Of a DNA stretch of 36,391 nucleotides, positions 1,459 through 10,490 are shown in pieces. The stretch lies in IMG/VR virus record IMGVR_UViG_2534681704_000005, positions 1-36,391 of that record. One strand, written 5' to 3'. The notes under the pieces were generated by a model that saw only the letters and a program-made list of their open reading frames with translations, made no database searches and had not been told where the DNA came from. The DNA comes from a virus (taxonomy: Duplodnaviria; Heunggongvirae; Uroviricota; Caudoviricetes). The position numbers and the translations under genes are program-made. Every line of letters begins with the position of its first letter. Position 1 is the first letter of the stretch.

Positions 1459-2622
1459 TTACACATCATTAGTACCTTCCTTATTTTTTGACTGGGACAA
1501 ATTTGGGACCGATGGGTTCAGGATCGAGTCTATTTGCCGTGCGTGTTCGGTAAGGTGATTAGGTGCAAGGTGAGCATATCGACGAACCATTTCGATAGAC
1601 TCCCAGCCTCCCATTTCCTGTAACACTGACAACGGGACTCCGGCTTGAACCAGCCAACTTGCCCAGGTGTGTCTCAAGTCGTGAAATCTGAAATCATCAA
1701 TACCAGCCCGTCTCAGCGCCGCTTTCCAGGCTGTGTTTGCGTCATACCGCATCTTCCTTACTGTTGGCGCTTTCGTTCCGTCTGGTTTGGTACAGCTTTC
1801 CTTGTACACAAATACCCAACGGTGATGATTCCCGATTTGTTTTTTCAATACGCGACATGCAGTATCATTCAGCGCAACGCCAATTGCGCGGTTTGATTTA
1901 CTCTCTTCCGGGTTTATCCATGCCACCCGGCGCTGCATATCTATTTGTTGCCATTCAAGGTTGATGATGTTCGAGCGTCTTAAGCCTGTTGCCAGTGCAA
2001 ATTCAACAACAGACTTTAATGGCTCCGGACATTCATCAATCAGCCTTTGTGCTTCATGGGGCTCCAGCCAGCGGATCCGTTTATTCTTTGGTTGAGGCAC
2101 TTTAATAATTGGTGCCTTATCCAGCATTTTCCATTCACGCTCTGCGGCTCTTAGTAGGGCCTTTATAAATGAAAGATGCGTAGCCTTCGTTGCAACGGAC
2201 GCTGGTTTTGGCGTGTATTCTGGAACAGGTTTCCCTTTTTTTCTGCATGCTTCTGCCCTGAGTTTCCAGTTTTCCTCATGACGCCGGTTTGTCATTTTCT
2301 GCATTGCTGAATAAATTTTTGATTCAGTAATGTCTCTTAGTTGCATTCCTGCGAAATGTTGAAGCCAGAATCCGATCCGGCTTTTGTCATCGTCCAGTGA
2401 TTTTTTATGTGCTTTCTCTTCAAGCCACCTGACACACGCTTCCTCGAACGTTATATCAGGTATTTCACCAAGTTTGCTGACCCGCCATGCTTCAGCCTTT
2501 AGCTTGTCATGGAGTTCTGTCGCCTGCCTTTTGTCCTTTGTTCCAAGAGACTGTTTAAATCTTTTACCGTTCGGCAATGTGAAACTGGCGTACCATATTT
2601 CACCTCTGCGGAAGAGTGACAT
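1459..2622 (-). CDS. int: Tyrosine site-specific integrase (P22/SfV-like)
   Basis: 387-aa ORF starting [23 protein letters not shown]-terminal HDLRHTW...RYAH tyrosine-recombinase motifs; directly adjacent to thrW. Confidence 0.92.
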
Positions 2623-3154: not shown

Positions 3155-3516
3155 TATGCTCCAGCCTCCGGTGCTTTTGGCATTACTGCCCAGTGAGTGA
3201 TATTGACGTTTTCAAGGTCCCCGACCTGAAATGTCCACTGCCATTCTCCGGTTTCTTTTTGTCCCCAGGTGTACCAGAGAGAACGCCAGCCAATTAGCCA
3301 GCCTTCTCCGTTAGCATCGAATAACAAAACACTTTCATTTGCTGGTGGCAGTTCAGTGGACACTGGTATTACTTTGTTTTCCTGTGCTGCACATTTAGCT
3401 TCAAGCGCATCGAATTTACGCACCAGGTATTCAGCATCTGTTTCATTTACTTTCAGATCTCGCGGTACACATCTCCCACGAAGAAACCCTTCCATTTCGA
3501 AAACATTCATGCGCAT
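3154..3516 (-). CDS. DUF551-like phage protein, 120 aa (YfdS-like)
   Basis: C-terminal NITHWAVMPKAPE resembles the DUF551 ITHWMPLP motif; start overlaps stop of upstream gene. Confidence 0.7.
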   Translation of the reverse strand: MRMNVFEMEGFLRGRCVPRDLKVNETDAEYLVRKFDALEAKCAAQENKVIPVSTELPPANESVLLFDANGEGWLIGWRSLWYTWGQKETGEWQWTFQVGDLENVNITHWAVMPKAPEAGA

Positions 3517-4043
3517 TTGCGTAACTCCGATAACTCGTTAAAGCGTTCCATAAACATCCCGTAGGCATGGCCCGGTGCCAGTGGAATCACGTTGAACATC
3601 TCTGTTGCCGGGATACCTTCCAGTACAGGCCAGAAAGAGCCATCATCAAGCCCGAGATCGCGGCGTTCGGTTGCCAGCATGATGAGATCGGCATATTTCA
3701 CGGGCGTACTCATAACTGGGGGTAACCCGTATTTCTCACGGATTACGGCGTCTATTTTTTCTTCCATTTGTTTATAGTCAGGAAGAAGGCGTTTCAGTGG
3801 TGCGGGAATGTCCTGGCAATACGCTTCTGTTGCATCATGCATTAACGCTTCAAAAGCAAATTCCTGCGGCACCAGCTGGCTGCAAAGAACCGCATGTTGG
3901 GCGACGCTGTAGAAGTGCGAAAGATGACCGGCAAAGCGACAGATATTTGAAAGGGAAACCGCGATATCGTTAATATCGATGTCGTCTTTATTTATCCTGT
4001 CATAATAAAAATGCTTCCCGGAAAAAGTTTTAATAAATGACAT
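3507..4043 (-). CDS. HD-domain phosphohydrolase, 5'-deoxynucleotidase-like, 178 aa (YfdR-like)
   Basis: H...HD motif (ALMHDATEAY); start taken at MSFIKTF (ATG 4043) with SD GGAGA 5 nt upstream rather than the GTG at 4070. Confidence 0.8.
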   Translation of the reverse strand: MSFIKTFSGKHFYYDRINKDDIDINDIAVSLSNICRFAGHLSHFYSVAQHAVLCSQLVPQEFAFEALMHDATEAYCQDIPAPLKRLLPDYKQMEEKIDAVIREKYGLPPVMSTPVKYADLIMLATERRDLGLDDGSFWPVLEGIPATEMFNVIPLAPGHAYGMFMERFNELSELRKCA

Positions 4044-4136
4044 TTTGTTCTCCACGTATATGCGCTGCACCGCGCTGAATTCTGGTAAAAAGAATCCCTC
4101 ACCATCCGGCGATTATTGAGTAAATTACGTTTCCAT

Positions 4137-4158
4137 AAATGCCCCCGCAGGGGCATTT
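4137..4158. terminator. Perfect 9-bp hairpin AAATGCCCC-CGCA-GGGGCATTT between two early-left genes (candidate intra-operon attenuator)
   Basis: Perfect inverted repeat with 4-nt loop, 13 nt after the stop of the 274-aa gene; only a short U-tract, so partial termination at most. Confidence 0.45.
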
Positions 4159-4170
4159 GCAGTAATGAAA

Positions 4171-4995
4171 TCAGGCGGTGAAAGTACCAATAAAGGTTTC
4201 TACTTTGCTGTCCTTGAATTTCTCAACAAGCAGATCACGAAATTCGTTAGCCATTTCTTCCTGCACCGCCTCCAGCTGAATAATGCGCAGAACCAGTACA
4301 GGACGATCGCCAGTGATAATACTGAGGCGTAATTTAAACGGACGTTCTTTCAGACCTTCAAACGGAACGCATTTAAATTCAAATGCCACTGGCATAATGT
4401 CTTTGGTCTTCGCTTCGACAGACTCCATCAGGGAGCGTTTGCCGCTGAAGTCATTATCTTCAAAATCAGCGGTCTGGTTTGCTTCAATCGTGATTTTACG
4501 GACAGCCGCAGCCGCTTTTGTTGCCTGAATAGCGTCACCATTAGCATCAAAGCCCACAAGATAGTCTGCCCAGTCTTCAATCCATTCTGCTAGTGACTTC
4601 TGGGAGTTACGCTCGCCGTTAATAGACAACAGAGCAGAGAACGGTGCTGTCTTTTTCAGTTTGAGTGTGGCGGTGTTATCTGCGTGACCTGGTTCATCAA
4701 TAGTACCTAGGTTAAGCACACTGACGGCACGCATATTATCAGCATCGATAAAGCAGCGGGTGCCTTCATCTGCAAGATCTTTAGAATAACGGGTAAAGTC
4801 ATCGATGCTGGCAGTGGAAAGCGCACCACGGAAACGGAAGCGATTTAAATTAAATTTTTCCAGATCATGAATGCGGAAATTCTCAGGCAATGCCACAGCA
4901 TCGGCACCAATCTTACTGATAATTTCATTAACACTCTGAGCAGAAATTAGGGCATGGATTTGATTAATTGCGGTTGCGTCTAAGTTCTGAGACAT
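4171..4995 (-). CDS. DUF2303-like phage protein, 274 aa (YfdQ-like)
   Basis: ORF with SD GAGGA 6 nt upstream of ATG; size and context match CPS-53 YfdQ; function unknown. Confidence 0.75.
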
Positions 4996-5060
4996 AATAA
5001 GTCCTCACTATATAAAGATATTCAGTGATGAGATAAATAATCAGTTAATTAAAAACGATA

Positions 5061-5423
5061 TTAACGACCTGCTGCGCGGAGTCTTCCGTCAGGTTCACCG
5101 GCAAGAGTCAGCAACTGTCCCTGGTCTTCCTGCAGAATAGTCAGGCGACCACCGCGATTGACATACATCGGCGTTTCGGTGGTGTCTTCTTCGGAAATTT
5201 TCCCGCGGTTAGTCGGGCGAACATATGAGAGTTTGTGTTTGATTTTCACTCGGTTCTCATCAAACGGTTCGATTTCTAGGTTGAGCGAGACCTTACCTTT
5301 GGTTTTCGTGTTCATCACACCGGAAGCGACTTCACTGAGAACTGCGCCGATTTTGGTTTCAAATACGCCGCCGTCCAGCTCCCCGATAAATGCCTGCACA
5401 TCAGTACTGCGTTCGCTAGCCAT
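5061..5423 (-). CDS. Hypothetical early protein, 120 aa (YfdP-like)
   Basis: Start taken at MASERSTDVQAF with SD GAGGAG 7 nt upstream; the 226-aa ORF in the track extends upstream through a low-complexity, likely non-coding stretch. Confidence 0.7.
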   Translation of the reverse strand: MASERSTDVQAFIGELDGGVFETKIGAVLSEVASGVMNTKTKGKVSLNLEIEPFDENRVKIKHKLSYVRPTNRGKISEEDTTETPMYVNRGGRLTILQEDQGQLLTLAGEPDGRLRAAGR

Positions 5424-5471
5424 TTTGCTGCTCCTCATCATATCGACCCTGCAAGGTCGGTTAGTTTCTCC

Positions 5472-5560
5472 ACAAAACAGAGAAGAACACCTGCGGTGAC
5501 TGCCGCCCGGATGGATTGGGTTATGAGCCCGTCGTCCGGTGATGCTCTTCTCTGTTTTGT
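5472..5560. repeat. 18-bp imperfect inverted repeat (ACAAAACAGAGAAGAACA / TGCTCTTCTCTGTTTTGT) flanking a 53-bp GC-rich spacer
   Basis: Arms at 5472-5489 and 5543-5560 match 17/18; lies in a roughly 420-bp ORF-poor GC-rich region upstream of the YfdP-like gene. Confidence 0.5.
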
Positions 5561-5861
5561 AAAAAGGACGGTACCAGCCGGAAGCAAGGGTACAAACTGG
5601 TACCGCCAGGACTACACACAGCATAAAGTTGTGGTGCCGGGTGCCTCCCGGTGCCTGGCGAAGGTTGCACACCAGACGGGTGGGTATCCACAGAAGGTCG
5701 ACTGTCAGCCTCAACCTTAACCCGCGTGCGCTGAGCCGCATTCACCACAACGCTAAGGATTCTCTCTGGTTGAAAATACTTAGCTGTTATGTGCCTGTCT
5801 TTTCACCACTTCAGGCTCGGTGGTATCTTGGTGTTTTCATATAGCCAAGAAGGAAATAGTT

Positions 5862-6053
5862 ATGACCAAAGAAGAAAAAATTCTTTATTTATTCCAACTA
5901 TCGGTTAAGACTCACACTGCATATCAGACTGCTGCCATGACATCAGATAAAAATTACAGTACGTCAGAAAACCCGATAGACGACATAAGCAAGCTTTACG
6001 ATAAGTTCGAAGCACTACTCGATAAAAAGTTTGCTGAGGCTGGGCTTGAGTGA
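5862..6053 (+). CDS. Small hypothetical protein, 63 aa (MTKEEKILYLFQLSVK...)
   Basis: ATG 5862 with SD AAGGAAA 5-6 nt upstream; AT-rich; 3' end overlaps the convergent 58-aa ORF by 39 bp. Confidence 0.4.
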   Translation: MTKEEKILYLFQLSVKTHTAYQTAAMTSDKNYSTSENPIDDISKLYDKFEALLDKKFAEAGLE

Positions 6054-6191
6054 TTGTTGAATAATCGACAAAACCCAACTTAAATTTTCGTCAGTGGGCT
6101 CGATGCCATGTGCGGTGAGCTCACTTTTCAAAACTCCAAGCAATTCAGAGCTGATTTTCAATATATCTGCTTGATTTCTAACTATTCCCAC
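6015..6191 (-). CDS. Small hypothetical protein, 58 aa (GTG start)
   Basis: GTG at 6191 preceded by AAGGGAGG with 5-nt spacer, much better than the ATG at 6221; no recognisable domain. Confidence 0.4.
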   Translation of the reverse strand: MGIVRNQADILKISSELLGVLKSELTAHGIEPTDENLSWVLSIIQQSLKPSLSKLFIE

Positions 6192-6280
6192 TTTTTCCTC
6201 CCTTGGTCTACGCGCGGTCATGTTTTACGCCCAAACGACTTCACAGTTATTGTTTAAAATCTGGACTTTCATTTTGTTCT

Positions 6281-6484
6281 TTAACCTCCAGATTTCCGCG
6301 CATCTAAAGGCGCATTCTCATTTGGTGTGAACTGAATAGTTGTGCTGATATTGATTAATGCCCCGACACACAAGACTACGCACTCAGAGCAGATAGCAAC
6401 TTCATCTTTTCCGCCTTTGGCGATGATTTTTTTTGCCTGCAGCTCGTTTGCGCCACAAAACGAGCATGTGAAATAACGGTTCAT
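6281..6484 (-). CDS. Stand-alone ClpX-type C4 zinc-finger (ZBD-like) protein, 67 aa
   Basis: MNRYFTCSFCGANELQAKKIIAKGGKDEVAICSECVVLC matches the CSFCG...ICxECVxLC pattern of the ClpX N-terminal zinc-binding domain; first ORF downstream of the predicted pL. Confidence 0.6.
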   Translation of the reverse strand: MNRYFTCSFCGANELQAKKIIAKGGKDEVAICSECVVLCVGALINISTTIQFTPNENAPLDARKSGG

Positions 6485-6578
6485 TTGCGCTCTCTTACAC
6501 ATAGTATTTAACGAATCATCCGGTCATTCATACGCCACCGGCGGCTACTTCGTGGGCGTCCTGCCTGTTCGTTGTTTT

Positions 6579-6594
6579 AACACCTTTAAGTTGT
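6579..6594. promoter_or_regulatory. OL operator-like 16-mer AACACCTTTAAGTTGT (15/16 identical to the OR copy)
   Basis: Near-identical 16-mers on both sides of cI; region rich in ACAAC/GTTGT half-site repeats. Confidence 0.4.
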
Positions 6595-6623
6595 AATTTA
6601 GTTGTGGTTTTGAATGTTGTCAA
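6595..6623 (-). promoter_or_regulatory. Candidate pL (leftward early promoter): -35 TTGACA, 17-bp spacer, -10 TAAATT
   Basis: Perfect -35 hexamer on the minus strand (plus 6618-6623), -10 at plus 6595-6600; conserved operator 16-mer lies at the predicted start site. Confidence 0.4.
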
Positions 6624-6686
6624 CAACTTTATGTGGTTTGAACGAGTAGCCAAGGAGTGCAAGGATTATCAAAAAAAGGAGGTTGT

Positions 6687-7577
6687 ATGGAAGACGCGCT
6701 TTACGCTTTTAATTACACACAGAACCGGGACAAGTTATTTGCTAACTTGATTAGCATCATTGATGGAATCATTGCAGATGGAGTTGTCCGTGAAGAGGAG
6801 GTTCTTTACTTAGATACATGGTTACTTGAAGCAAAGCAGATTATCAATAATGGAGTTATAAAAAGTCTATCAGCACGGGTGTCGGATATTCTTGCGGATG
6901 GAATAATCACATCAGAAGAACGTGATGACCTTAAAAATAGCCTTCTCCAAATACAGAGGGAAATTCTTGATATCCCTGAAATTGATTTTTACTCCAAGGA
7001 TGTAGATGTCCATTTACTTAATGGACTATGTAAAGGATTAATTGCTGATCGGAACTTAACTCAAGAAGAAATAAGATATCTTAATTGGTGGCTTGAGCAA
7101 AATGGAGCTTTGAAGAACAACTACCCAGGAAAAAAACTTTATGCACTTGTAAAGGAAATTCTTAAAGATGGTGTTATTACTGAAGATGAGAGTTTAACTC
7201 TACATAAGGCATTAGTAGACTTCACAGGATGTGACTTGGAAAGTGGGGTGGTGGATGGTTTGGCGACTAGGCTGCCTATTGATGTAGGGGCTTCGATAGA
7301 GTTAGAGGGTAAAACCTATTGTCTTACAGGCACTTTTGTTGCAGGAAAGAGAGCCGTAGTTGAAAATTTGATTAAAAATGCTGGTGGGAACATCAGTAGT
7401 GGAATTACTCAAAAGTTGGATTTTTTAGTAATTGGGACGCTTTCCTCCCGTGATTGGAAATTCTCAAGTCACGGAAGGAAGATCGAAAAGGCTATATCTT
7501 ATAGGGATGATAATGGTGCAAAACTTAAAATTATTTCTGAAGAAATGCTTTTCGATGCATTACCAAGTTCGCGATGA
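6687..7577 (+). CDS. Accessory protein with four TerB-like repeats and a C-terminal BRCT-like domain, 296 aa
   Basis: Strong SD AAGGAGG (6677-6683) before ATG 6687; repeats IADGVVREEE, LADGIITSEER, IADRNLTQEE, LKDGVITEDE; C-terminus GKTYCLTGTF...FLVIG...LKIISEEMLFDAL resembles BRCT; AT-rich; 3' end overlaps the cI stop by 18 bp (convergent). Confidence 0.8.
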   Translation: MEDALYAFNYTQNRDKLFANLISIIDGIIADGVVREEEVLYLDTWLLEAKQIINNGVIKSLSARVSDILADGIITSEERDDLKNSLLQIQREILDIPEIDFYSKDVDVHLLNGLCKGLIADRNLTQEEIRYLNWWLEQNGALKNNYPGKKLYALVKEILKDGVITEDESLTLHKALVDFTGCDLESGVVDGLATRLPIDVGASIELEGKTYCLTGTFVAGKRAVVENLIKNAGGNISSGITQKLDFLVIGTLSSRDWKFSSHGRKIEKAISYRDDNGAKLKIISEEMLFDALPSSR

Positions 7578-8246
7578 CCAGAATACCCTACCTATAACAT
7601 GAATTCTGGCTCGTCTATCTTCAAAGGTGAGTATTTCATCTGGGTACTCATCTTTGTTGAAGCTTCTAAGAATCAAGCCACCGTCAGGTAAGTTGATAAG
7701 TATTTTAACCCTTAGCAATACACCATCTCGTACGGCATAAAGATCGCCATCACGAATAGGAACGGTTTGAGAAATATCAACGGCAACAAGATCTCCATTA
7801 TTGAGAACCGGTAATAAACTGTTCCCCCATATTTTTACGATCTTGGCATTAGATGCACATACGCCAGATTTTCTCAAATCTGCTCTTCTTAATGGAAACC
7901 AGTCAATAGCTGATTCAACTATTTCAGCCAGACATCCGTTACCTGCCGATAACTCGACATCTAAAACAGGAATGTTTACGAAAATATCGGGGTCTAATGC
8001 GGTGCTTTCTGCTTCTTTTACAACAAGATCAGGTATGGATGCGTTGTCTTCAATACCAAGTTGTAACCACTTTTGTGATACACCTAAAACTTTTGCAATT
8101 TCTTTAATTTTGCGCGGTTGTAGAGTTTCGCCATTCTCTATTTTGGCTACAGATTGTTGTGAAAGTCCAATTTTTTCAGCTAGTTGAGCTTGGCTCATGC
8201 CAGCTTTCTCTCTACCTATCTTTAATCGTTCTGCCAGTGTTTTCAC
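7560..8246 (-). CDS. cI: CI-type prophage repressor (XRE HTH + S24 LexA-like autopeptidase)
   Basis: N-terminal HTH (MSQAQLAEKIGLSQQSVAKIENGE), Ala-Gly cleavage site (LSAGNG), Ser (WGNSLLP) and Lys (LLRVK) spaced as in LexA/CI; GTG start with SD GAGGGA; divergent from cro. Confidence 0.9.
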   Translation of the reverse strand: MKTLAERLKIGREKAGMSQAQLAEKIGLSQQSVAKIENGETLQPRKIKEIAKVLGVSQKWLQLGIEDNASIPDLVVKEAESTALDPDIFVNIPVLDVELSAGNGCLAEIVESAIDWFPLRRADLRKSGVCASNAKIVKIWGNSLLPVLNNGDLVAVDISQTVPIRDGDLYAVRDGVLLRVKILINLPDGGLILRSFNKDEYPDEILTFEDRRARIHVIGRVFWSSRTW

Positions 8247-8298
8247 AACATATCCCTCTCTTTTTTGATGAGGTTACAACTTTATGTTTTAGCTTTCC

Positions 8299-8314
8299 AA
8301 CACCTAAAAGTTGT
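8299..8314. promoter_or_regulatory. OR operator-like 16-mer AACACCTAAAAGTTGT
   Basis: 15/16 identical to the OL copy; lies between the divergent cI and cro starts with further ACAAC/GTTGT repeats. Confidence 0.4.
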
Positions 8315-8381: not shown

Positions 8382-8630
8382 ATGACACCTGAGCAATTAG
8401 CCTTATCGGAGGCAATCGCTCTGGCTGGTGGTCAATCAGAATTGGCTCGGAAGCTCACAGCCAGCAGCGGTCATTTAGTAAAGCAACAACATGTCTGGAA
8501 CTGGTTGAACAGAGAAAAGCGTCCCCCTGCAAAGCTCTCGATATTCATTGAAAAGACCACTGGCATATCAAAAGAAAAATTACGTCCAGATATTTTTCAA
8601 AAGATTAAAGATTCATCAGATGAAAAGTAA
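8382..8630 (+). CDS. cro: Cro-like HTH regulator (YdaS/Cro family), 82 aa
   Basis: SD AAAAAGGAG before ATG; small HTH protein divergent from cI. Confidence 0.8.
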   Translation: MTPEQLALSEAIALAGGQSELARKLTASSGHLVKQQHVWNWLNREKRPPAKLSIFIEKTTGISKEKLRPDIFQKIKDSSDEK

Positions 8631-9548: not shown

Positions 9549-10490
9549 ATGAGCACTAAATTAACCGGCTATGTATGGGATGGTTGCGCTGCATCAGGCA
9601 TGAAATTATCCAGCGTGGCAATTATGGCCCGCCTGGCTGATTTCAGTAATGACGAAGGTGTGTGCTGGCCATCAATTGAAACCATTGCCCGTCAGATTGG
9701 CGCGGGGATGAGTACCGTCAGAACGGCTATCGCACGGCTGGAAGCAGAAGGCTGGTTAACGCGTAAGGCGTGTCGCCAGGGTAACCGCAATGCGTCGAAT
9801 GTTTATCAGCTTAACGTTGCGAAGCTTCAGGCAGCGGCATTTTCTCAACTGTCAGATTCTGACCCGTCAAAATCTGACGCATCAAAATCTGACCCGTCAA
9901 AATTTGATGCGTCGAAATCTGGCAAAAAAGCGGGTTTTCACCCGTCAGAATCTGGCGGGGATCCGTCAGTAAAATCAAAACATGATCCGTCAGATAAAAA
10001 AACTTCTCGTCCGGACGCTTCGCAACCGGACACGCAGACGGCTGAACAGGAGTTTTTAACTCGCCATCCTGATGCGGTTGTATTCAGCCCTAAAAAGCGC
10101 CAGTGGGGAACGCAGGATGATTTGACCTGCGCACAGTGGCTCTGGAAAAAAATCATCGCCCTGTACGAGCAGGCCGCCGAATGTGACGGCGAGGTGGTTC
10201 GTCCCAAAGAACCGAACTGGACAGCCTGGGCAAACGAAATTCGCCTGATGTGTGTGCAGGATGGTCGTACTCATAAACAAATCTGCGAGATGTACAGCCG
10301 CGTCAGTCGCGATCCGTTCTGGTGCCGTAACGTGCTCAGCCCGTCGAAGCTGCGGGAAAAATGGGATGAGCTTTCCCTGCGCTTATCGCCGTCCGTCAGC
10401 ACGTACACCGAAAAACGCGAAGACCCGTACTTCAAAGCCAGTTACGACAACGTGGACTACAGCCAGATCCCGGCAGGATTCAGGGGGTGA
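9549..10490 (+). CDS. Replication initiator (lambda O-like) with internal iteron origin, 313 aa
   Basis: N-terminal winged-helix DNA-binding region; tandem repeats in the coding sequence appear as SDPSKSDASKSDPSKFDASKSG in the protein, as with ori-lambda inside O. Confidence 0.75.
   Translation: MSTKLTGYVWDGCAASGMKLSSVAIMARLADFSNDEGVCWPSIETIARQIGAGMSTVRTAIARLEAEGWLTRKACRQGNRNASNVYQLNVAKLQAAAFSQLSDSDPSKSDASKSDPSKFDASKSGKKAGFHPSESGGDPSVKSKHDPSDKKTSRPDASQPDTQTAEQEFLTRHPDAVVFSPKKRQWGTQDDLTCAQWLWKKIIALYEQAAECDGEVVRPKEPNWTAWANEIRLMCVQDGRTHKQICEMYSRVSRDPFWCRNVLSPSKLREKWDELSLRLSPSVSTYTEKREDPYFKASYDNVDYSQIPAGFRG
9864..9993. repeat. Iteron array (putative ori): four tandem 15-bp repeats (CCGTCAAAATCTGAC-like) plus three CCGTCAG copies and an AT-rich tract
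   Basis: Repeat starts at 9864, 9879, 9894, 9909, then 9942, 9963, 9987; followed by an A-rich stretch. Confidence 0.6.

Follow-up and report, generated by a model that had tools for sequence, protein, structure and literature searches.

What use might a temperate phage make of a small protein that resembles the docking domain of the host protein ClpX, and why should its gene stand first in the leftward early operon? The question is raised by a 36,391-nt stretch of caudoviricete DNA (IMG/VR record IMGVR_UViG_2534681704_000005, positions 1 to 36,391; hereafter the window) from a temperate phage of the SfII/SfV/e14-like kind, inserted beside a tRNA gene (1369-1441), with its integrase gene at 1459..2622 on the minus strand and a near-twin prophage (99.9%) in Escherichia coli KE58. 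A cI-like HTH/S24 repressor (7560..8246, minus strand) and a cro-like gene (8382..8630, plus strand) mark the immunity region, and downstream of the latter come a YmfL/cII-like gene and then an O-like gene. In RefSeq the product in question already goes under the name 'ClpX C4-type zinc finger protein', so that the domain call is standard annotation and its assignment routine; the value of the gene lies in its early-gene context and in a testable hypothesis about its function.

Coding sequence, domain and predicted fold of the ZBD protein

The gene lies at 6281..6484 on the minus strand, within an open reading frame spanning 6281..6502, and encodes a stand-alone ClpX-type zinc-binding-domain (ZBD) protein of 67 aa, MNRYFTCSFCGANELQAKKIIAKGGKDEVAICSECVVLCVGALINISTTIQFTPNENAPLDARKSGG, an identification to which a Pfam match, the predicted fold and a PGAP coding sequence all contribute. 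A preliminary description of the locus had left the start ambiguous between ATG 6484 and ATG 6502. The choice falls on ATG 6484, because all homologues share the N-terminus MN.Y.TCSFCG, a Shine-Dalgarno-like AAGAGAG read from the sequence (6490..6496, minus strand; AGGAG in the homologues) ends 5 nt before this codon, and PGAP calls the same 204-nt CDS in the KE58 prophage (WP_001083098.1, equivalent to window 6281..6484, minus strand).

The same description had read the frame as a gene carrying the C4 zinc finger of the ClpX N-domain and had suggested alignment to the corresponding profile as a check. Pfam zf-C4_ClpX (PF06689) indeed matches residues 6-40 of the 67-aa protein with E=1.3e-10 and 41.4 bits against a gathering score of 27, a threshold cleared by five of six diverse family members, the remaining one scoring 26.2 bits; in a phmmer search of the PDB, ClpX chains were the sole matches (best 2ds5_A, E=2.5e-4). 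The AAA+ module, with its pore loops and IGF loop, is absent, as had also been proposed: the NCBIfam ClpX equivalogs TIGR00382 and NF003745 stay below threshold (25.8 bits for a cutoff of 359 and 22.7 bits for one of 371), and their alignments cover the N-terminal ~40 residues only. Among candidates considered and set aside, Ogr/Delta, Kil, cIII, anti-sigma and defence families found no counterpart in Pfam, PHROG, NCBIfam and PADLOC, which returned the ClpX domain alone (no PADLOC model at E<=0.1), and YdaE of the Rac prophage, a 'zinc-binding protein' beside kilR entertained as a K-12 homologue, proved unrelated in sequence.

Structure prediction points in the same direction. An AlphaFold2 model built from a seven-sequence family alignment has a core with pLDDT of 70-81 and a disordered tail, and a Foldseek search with this model puts crystal structures of the E. 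coli ClpX ZBD first (2ds5, 2ds6 and 2ds8), including the complex of the ZBD with the XB peptide, at an rmsd of 1.5-1.7 A over 41-45 columns, a target-normalised TM of 0.78-0.81 and a probability of 1.00, with all matches below them at E>1. The 67-aa protein is thus predicted to adopt the treble-clef ZBD fold, in keeping with the zinc finger first proposed, and shares with the ClpX N-terminal ZBD (PF06689; 1OVX, 2DS5-2DS8) the C4 treble clef, the CSFCG...ICxEC signature and a C-terminal helix.

The ZBD core comprises residues 4-45, followed by a variable tail at residues 46-67, and the predicted zinc ligands C7, C10, C32 and C35 are invariant in the family alignment. The gap between CSFCG and ICSEC, earlier given as 17 aa, is 19 residues by actual count; between C10 and C32 the spacer measures 21 residues against 18 in E. 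coli ClpX, a three-residue insertion (the KGGKDE loop) that recurs family-wide as a conserved hairpin insertion, AKGG[KN][DA]E, between the two zinc knuckles and that could, judging from the alignment, change partner specificity. Identity to the E. coli ClpX ZBD is ~36%. The equivalent of ClpX F16 (F9) is invariant in the family and that of A29 (A22) is retained, as are a fifth conserved cysteine (C39, ClpX C43) and the hydrophobic character of I20/I21, I31, V36, L38 and L43 (ClpX L27/I28, I35, V40, L42 and I47), positions that we take to belong to the ZBD core or dimer interface. ClpX I46, by contrast, is replaced by A42 at a position that varies in the family (A/T/V/I/K/L), and Y34, presumably a pocket residue in the ZBD-XB structure, by A30, where family members have a small or variable residue; the C-terminal helix is also markedly more hydrophobic than that of ClpX. 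Whereas ClpX is a host protein with a linker and an AAA+ body, its phage-encoded counterpart is stand-alone and predicted to be expressed only in the lytic state.

Promoter, neighbourhood and distribution of the ZBD gene

That prediction stems from the promoter. A pL-type sigma-70 promoter (TTGACA-17-TAAATT, 10/12 consensus matches; 6595..6623, minus strand) precedes the gene and, with the operator-type sites that flank it, bears out the preliminary placement of the ZBD gene as the first downstream of pL. One such site, ACACCTTTAAGTTGT (6580..6594), abuts the -10 hexamer and start region and has its motif repeated at 8300-8314; the other, ACAACTTTATGTGGT (6623..6637), abuts the -35 hexamer and shares a 12-nt identical block with the copy at 8276. 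The underlying 15-bp motif, ACAMCTWWAWGTKGT, thus flanks pL and has two further copies in the pR/pRM region, which separates the cI-like gene from the cro-like gene (8276-8290 and 8300-8314), with 11 matches in the window against 1.4 expected, a number reached by 0 of 100 shuffles. Because the same motif flanks pL and sits between the repressor and cro genes, pL is repressor-controlled, and for that reason the ZBD gene would be silent in the lysogen and its product would be the first protein of the leftward operon to appear after induction or infection. A fifth copy of the motif, ACAACTTTATGCTGT (5618-5632, one mismatch), lies deep in the leftward operon, upstream of a PHROG 204 gene (5061..5438); it may serve as a secondary site of repressor control or may match by chance.

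The same order of repressor, terminator, promoter, leader and ZBD gene is found in homologous loci of Salmonella phages 118970_sal3 and F1055 and of two contigs (L003 and L004), where a small opposite-strand gene follows the ZBD gene and the leftward early genes then run to xis and int. The terminator in these loci is an intrinsic one behind cI, on account of which their ZBD copies are probably not co-transcribed with the repressor.

A small opposite-strand gene stands right behind the ZBD gene in every ZBD-bearing locus examined (BssS-like in L004), which is a moron-like arrangement. In the window it is a gene of 63-77 aa (5820-6053, plus strand; PHROG 2605), opposed to the direction of the leftward operon, and its 3' end overlaps a convergent 68-aa gene (6015-6221, minus strand; PHROG 15476, N-terminus MTARRPREEK). 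Further along, a 226-aa open reading frame (5061-5741, minus strand) matches PHROG 204 through residues 101-226 only, its first 100 residues being implausible, and in the near-identical KE58 prophage a 'frameshifted' pseudogene is annotated just upstream of the plus-strand gene; the region 5061-5741 is probably a decayed gene or a mis-extended frame.

A gene on the opposite strand (6657-7577, plus strand), which encodes a 306-aa protein, separates the repressor gene from pL and has the position of rexAB in lambda. It had been described as a TerB/BRCT gene; Pfam confirms the C-terminal BRCT domain (E=1.4e-6) and returns no TerB match, and the N-terminal half has four repeats of D-G-(V/I)-I-T-x-E-E-type helices. 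With a weak match to the PADLOC candidate PDC-S48 (E=2.7e-7) and membership of PHROG 3989 (function unknown), the BRCT gene is likely a lysogen-expressed candidate for defence or exclusion. The suggestion that the ZBD gene might belong to the same accessory island must be abandoned, since each gene occurs without the other: ZBD homologues sit directly behind the repressor in four contigs that have no BRCT gene (L003, L004, L007 and L001), identical ZBD copies adjoin other immunity regions (L048 and L120), and the BRCT gene, also found without the ZBD gene, goes with the repressor type. The ZBD gene recombines independently of its neighbour, and among the loci compared it showed no association with a particular repressor, replication protein or BRCT gene.

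The position itself is a changeable one. Among 118 related loci retrieved through the conserved leader element described below, the ZBD family comes first in only 12-15; in the remainder the place is taken by Kil (mEp237), by members of several PHROG families without an assigned function, or by the 68-aa protein whose gene stands second in the window and first in SfII. This distribution argues that the first-gene position is a variable accessory slot and the ZBD gene a dispensable occupant and, therefore, not the regulator of the operon.

Selection has nevertheless acted on the protein where it is present. Over the first 50 codons, comparison with Salmonella and other homologues (58-76% aa identity) gives pN of 0.17-0.22 and pS of 0.76-0.94, with dN/dS of 0.11-0.47 where dS can be estimated and synonymous sites saturated, values indicative of purifying selection. 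Conservation extends from residue 1 to ~50, beyond which the tail differs in length and sequence; a weak motif, [IV]-x-F...[AS]-P, can be discerned there by eye (IQFTPNENAPL, ISFPDAPRL, ITFEHSP, VKFDYAP) and is missing from several members, and some members carry C-terminal extensions of 50-70 residues, in which a scan for known domains found none.

The close family (PHROG 5259, function unknown) is small and enterobacterial, with 15 clusters at 90% identity and ~13 representatives at 50% identity. Only four deposited phage genomes contain the gene, and among 5426 complete E. coli genomes it was found in 98; of 30 sampled E. coli records, about a third show a 1-nt length difference and lack a CDS annotation, which is consistent with the frameshifted-tail variant P0004. 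Beyond this circle, a scan of species-representative genomes for relatives gave two distant and uninformative clostridial matches only. The family profile also matches 632 metagenome clusters at E<=1e-3, most of them of small proteins in which a ZBD-like unit occurs one to four times, on the strength of which stand-alone ZBD-like proteins form a large, uncharacterised class; a literature search for a characterised stand-alone phage ClpX zinc finger found no functional study.

Candidate partners of the ZBD protein

The ClpX N-domain is a zinc-bound dimer on which adaptors and some substrates dock. Lambda O degradation needs this domain (PMC7804408), and the isolated ZBD, supplied in trans, binds RssB and inhibits RssB-dependent degradation of sigma-S by ClpXP (PMC7226468). 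Phages are in turn known to inhibit host AAA+ proteases, T7 gp4.5 and T4 PinA acting on Lon and lambda RexB on Clp proteases (PMC10286901). Because of N-domain docking, inhibition in trans and these anti-protease precedents, the most economical reading of the ZBD protein is as an immediate-early decoy of the ClpX docking domain, and it is advanced here as a tentative proposal. As a small early-lytic accessory protein, made up of a treble-clef zinc module and a short, poorly conserved tail, the ZBD protein would act as a free copy of the domain on which ClpX receives its substrates and adaptors, and, by binding the partners of the ClpX N-domain, keep them away from ClpXP. Such partners might be adaptors of the SspB or RssB type, or N-domain-dependent substrates such as lambda-O-like initiators and antitoxins (both MqsA (PMC8808172) and, as cited in PMC10286901, Phd are ClpXP substrates); as a result, phage proteins would be stabilised or host responses that the protease triggers would be blocked. 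Zinc binding, dimerisation and contact with ClpX partners are properties that we infer for the ZBD protein.

The ClpX-specific domain match, the predicted fold and the retained equivalents of F16 and A29 all favour a decoy, as do the early, repressor-controlled expression, the purifying selection and the occupation of the same slot in relatives by host-directed accessory genes such as Kil. Weighing against it are the modest identity, the replacement of I46 and Y34, the family-specific loop insertion and the more hydrophobic helix. F16 and I46, both shown to matter, form a hydrophobic side pocket used by lambda O, TF, SspB and RssB (PMC7804408), and of the two only F16 is conserved in the ZBD protein. 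The rarity and dispensability of the gene count against a decoy as well, as does the want of any tie to a replication module or repressor type that would indicate a protected phage substrate.

The fold, moreover, serves unrelated partners elsewhere. CsfB (Gin) of Bacillus subtilis, an anti-sigma factor that works by protein binding alone, is small, stand-alone and dimeric, with a treble-clef zinc fold whose nearest structural neighbour is the ClpX N-domain (PMC5890618). Since CsfB uses the same fold for an unrelated partner, a target other than the ClpX partners is almost as likely as a decoy, if itself doubtful when taken alone: the ZBD protein would then be a generic dimeric platform that binds, for example, FtsZ or the division machinery in a Kil-like manner, RNA polymerase or a sigma factor in the manner of CsfB, or some defence protein of the host. 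The presence of Kil in the equivalent slot of mEp237, the loss of I46 and Y34 alongside an invariant insertion of the family's own, and the diverse uses implied by the 632 metagenome clusters of stand-alone or tandem ZBD-like proteins all speak for such a target. Yet the interface of CsfB is another one and its identity to ClpX only ~20%, whereas the phage protein belongs to PF06689 proper and its similarity to ClpX is specific, significant and above the Pfam gathering score, with the equivalents of F16 and A29 kept and with Kil, Ogr/Delta, anti-sigma and PADLOC families unmatched.

It is less probable that the ZBD protein docks on ClpX itself, by forming a heterodimer with a ClpX N-domain or taking the place of an N-domain dimer on the hexamer, and there acts either as an adaptor, its variable tail bringing a specific host or phage protein to ClpXP, or as a poison subunit. 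The ZBD is a dimerisation domain (PMC7226468, PMC5890618). The hydrophobic positions that we place at the core or dimer interface are conserved, the weak tail motif could be a cargo or docking peptide, and some members are extended by stretches lacking a known domain; but the N-domains of the ClpX hexamer are already paired, at high local concentration, and the tail motif, besides being weak, is absent from several members.

Returning to the decoy, its nearest functional parallels lie among phage proteins unlike it in sequence. Lambda cIII, too, is encoded in the pL operon, and RexB adjoins cI. Together with T4 PinA and T7 gp4.5, these are small phage proteins that guard phage proteins or block protease-triggered toxin-antitoxin responses (PMC10286901), the target of cIII being FtsH; none has a sequence relationship to the ZBD protein (Pfam/PHROG) and none copies a domain of its target protease. 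The ZBD protein belongs to the ClpX N-domain family, and its link to phage anti-protease factors is a reasonable hypothesis with backing in the literature. More broadly, temperate enterobacterial phages may use a stand-alone ClpX docking domain to titrate adaptors or N-domain-dependent substrates, which would make it the first viral inhibitor to mimic the recognition domain of its own target protease; at present this generalisation should be thought unlikely. If true, it would add a new way in which phages interfere with proteolysis in the host, namely mimicry of the protease's own receptor domain, by which phage proteins are stabilised or ClpXP-triggered abortive-infection and toxin-antitoxin responses disarmed. 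It would bear on the stability of phage replication proteins, on prophage induction and on protease-triggered toxin-antitoxin defences, and it would offer a natural tool for separating adaptor-dependent from adaptor-independent ClpXP proteolysis in vivo.

The O-like replication protein of the window (9549-10490, plus strand) begins MSTKLTGYVW, a start that seems akin to the N-terminal motif by which ClpX recognises Dps (STAKLVKS) and lambda O (TNTAKI). Were the likeness real, the O-like protein would be a candidate for the protected substrate, but other replication modules are present in ZBD-bearing relatives.

The conserved leader and the question of antitermination

The ZBD gene stands where lambda has N. 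The description of this position as an 'N slot' holds as a matter of location and fails as a matter of role, given the minority of leader-sharing loci in which the ZBD family comes first. A recognisable N-like protein is absent, as was first reported: no Pfam or PHROG antiterminator matches any leftward open reading frame scanned from 3507 to 6484, the integrase-proximal frames being covered by eye only. That the ZBD protein, coming first after pL in an operon without a detected N, replaces lambda N as the leftward early antiterminator is nonetheless very improbable, given that it has no arginine-rich motif of the N type and no accompanying boxA/boxB (lambda N and nutL likewise lie directly downstream of pL), that relatives with the same leader and operon layout have unrelated first genes in its stead, and that the conserved element upstream is an RNA or DNA structure independent of the ZBD gene.

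This element, a 64-nt structured leader (6510..6573, minus strand) recognised by covariation, belongs to the context of the ZBD gene and is not part of it. Its closing helix P1 pairs 6573..6568 with 6515..6510 (5-7 bp across copies), its second helix P2 pairs 6541..6537 with 6524..6520 (5 bp, with a 12-nt loop), and an invariant core at 6567..6542 forms a 26-nt joining strand, CAGGCAGGACGCCCACGAAGUAGCCG. The leader has remained nearly invariant while the flanking operators and downstream genes diverged to synonymous saturation. When 49 distinct copies are aligned, pairing extends to 87.9% of cells (69.0% in shuffles) and double-sided changes number 141 (44.7 in shuffles), a result that 0 of 500 shuffles reach, with slid controls at <=44% paired. 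The window copy scores 92.5 bits with the covariance model, and distant copies (mEp237, ZF40) carry compensatory changes even in two otherwise invariant P2 pairs. Folding of the single sequence is no better than that of shuffles (z=0.16), the structure being revealed by comparative analysis only; a test for the transcribed strand gave G.U and A.C counts of 8 and 12. A terminator-like hairpin on the plus strand (6552-6568) is probably incidental, since its T-run is not conserved in other leader copies.

The leader is widespread and mostly unannotated. Of 5426 complete E. coli genomes, 1388 (~26%) contain it, always without annotation, and further copies lie in >115 IMG/VR contigs and in 53 deposited phages that represent 11 genera; E. 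coli K-12 has it in e14, between ymfK and ymfJ (L128, 6105-6185). Rfam 15 contains no family that matches it, and a literature search for the sequence returned nothing relevant. Copies with fully compensated P1 and P2 also occur in T5-like virulent Providencia phages, in PSTCR5 (L049, 664-745; unannotated) and in vB_PreS_PR1 (5191-5249; under an annotated repeat_region), so that the leader is not confined to temperate lambdoid pL operons.

The nearest analogue is putL of HK022, an RNA of ~70 nt with which the pL transcript begins and which works without a phage protein (PMC9378689); like the leader, it lies directly downstream of pL. Identity with the put elements of HK022 or HK639, with Rac kilS or with an Rfam family was considered and rejected for want of a match: the HK022 pL-nun region shows no blastn similarity to the leader beyond 11 nt, and a search of the HK022 and HK639 loci with R1, the covariance model of the leader, gave no match. 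The architecture differs as well, HK022 put having two stem-loops where the leader has a long-range closing stem and one hairpin, and HK022-type put usually having a second copy after pR, whereas a search of the window for a second leader copy found none. Because its position mirrors that of putL, our leading guess is that the leader is a cis-acting RNA of a new class, with control over early leftward transcription. It may replace the N/nut function in N-less phages, for which it is a better candidate than the ZBD gene. Roughly one in four complete E. coli genomes has the leader, which may matter more than that gene for how N-less lambdoid phages run their early operons. The HK639 record, for its part, has an 'M3-like RNA' annotated after cII (L129, 12911-12970) in addition to a putL-like RNA, which shows that further small annotated RNAs exist in the early operons of other N-less lambdoid phages.
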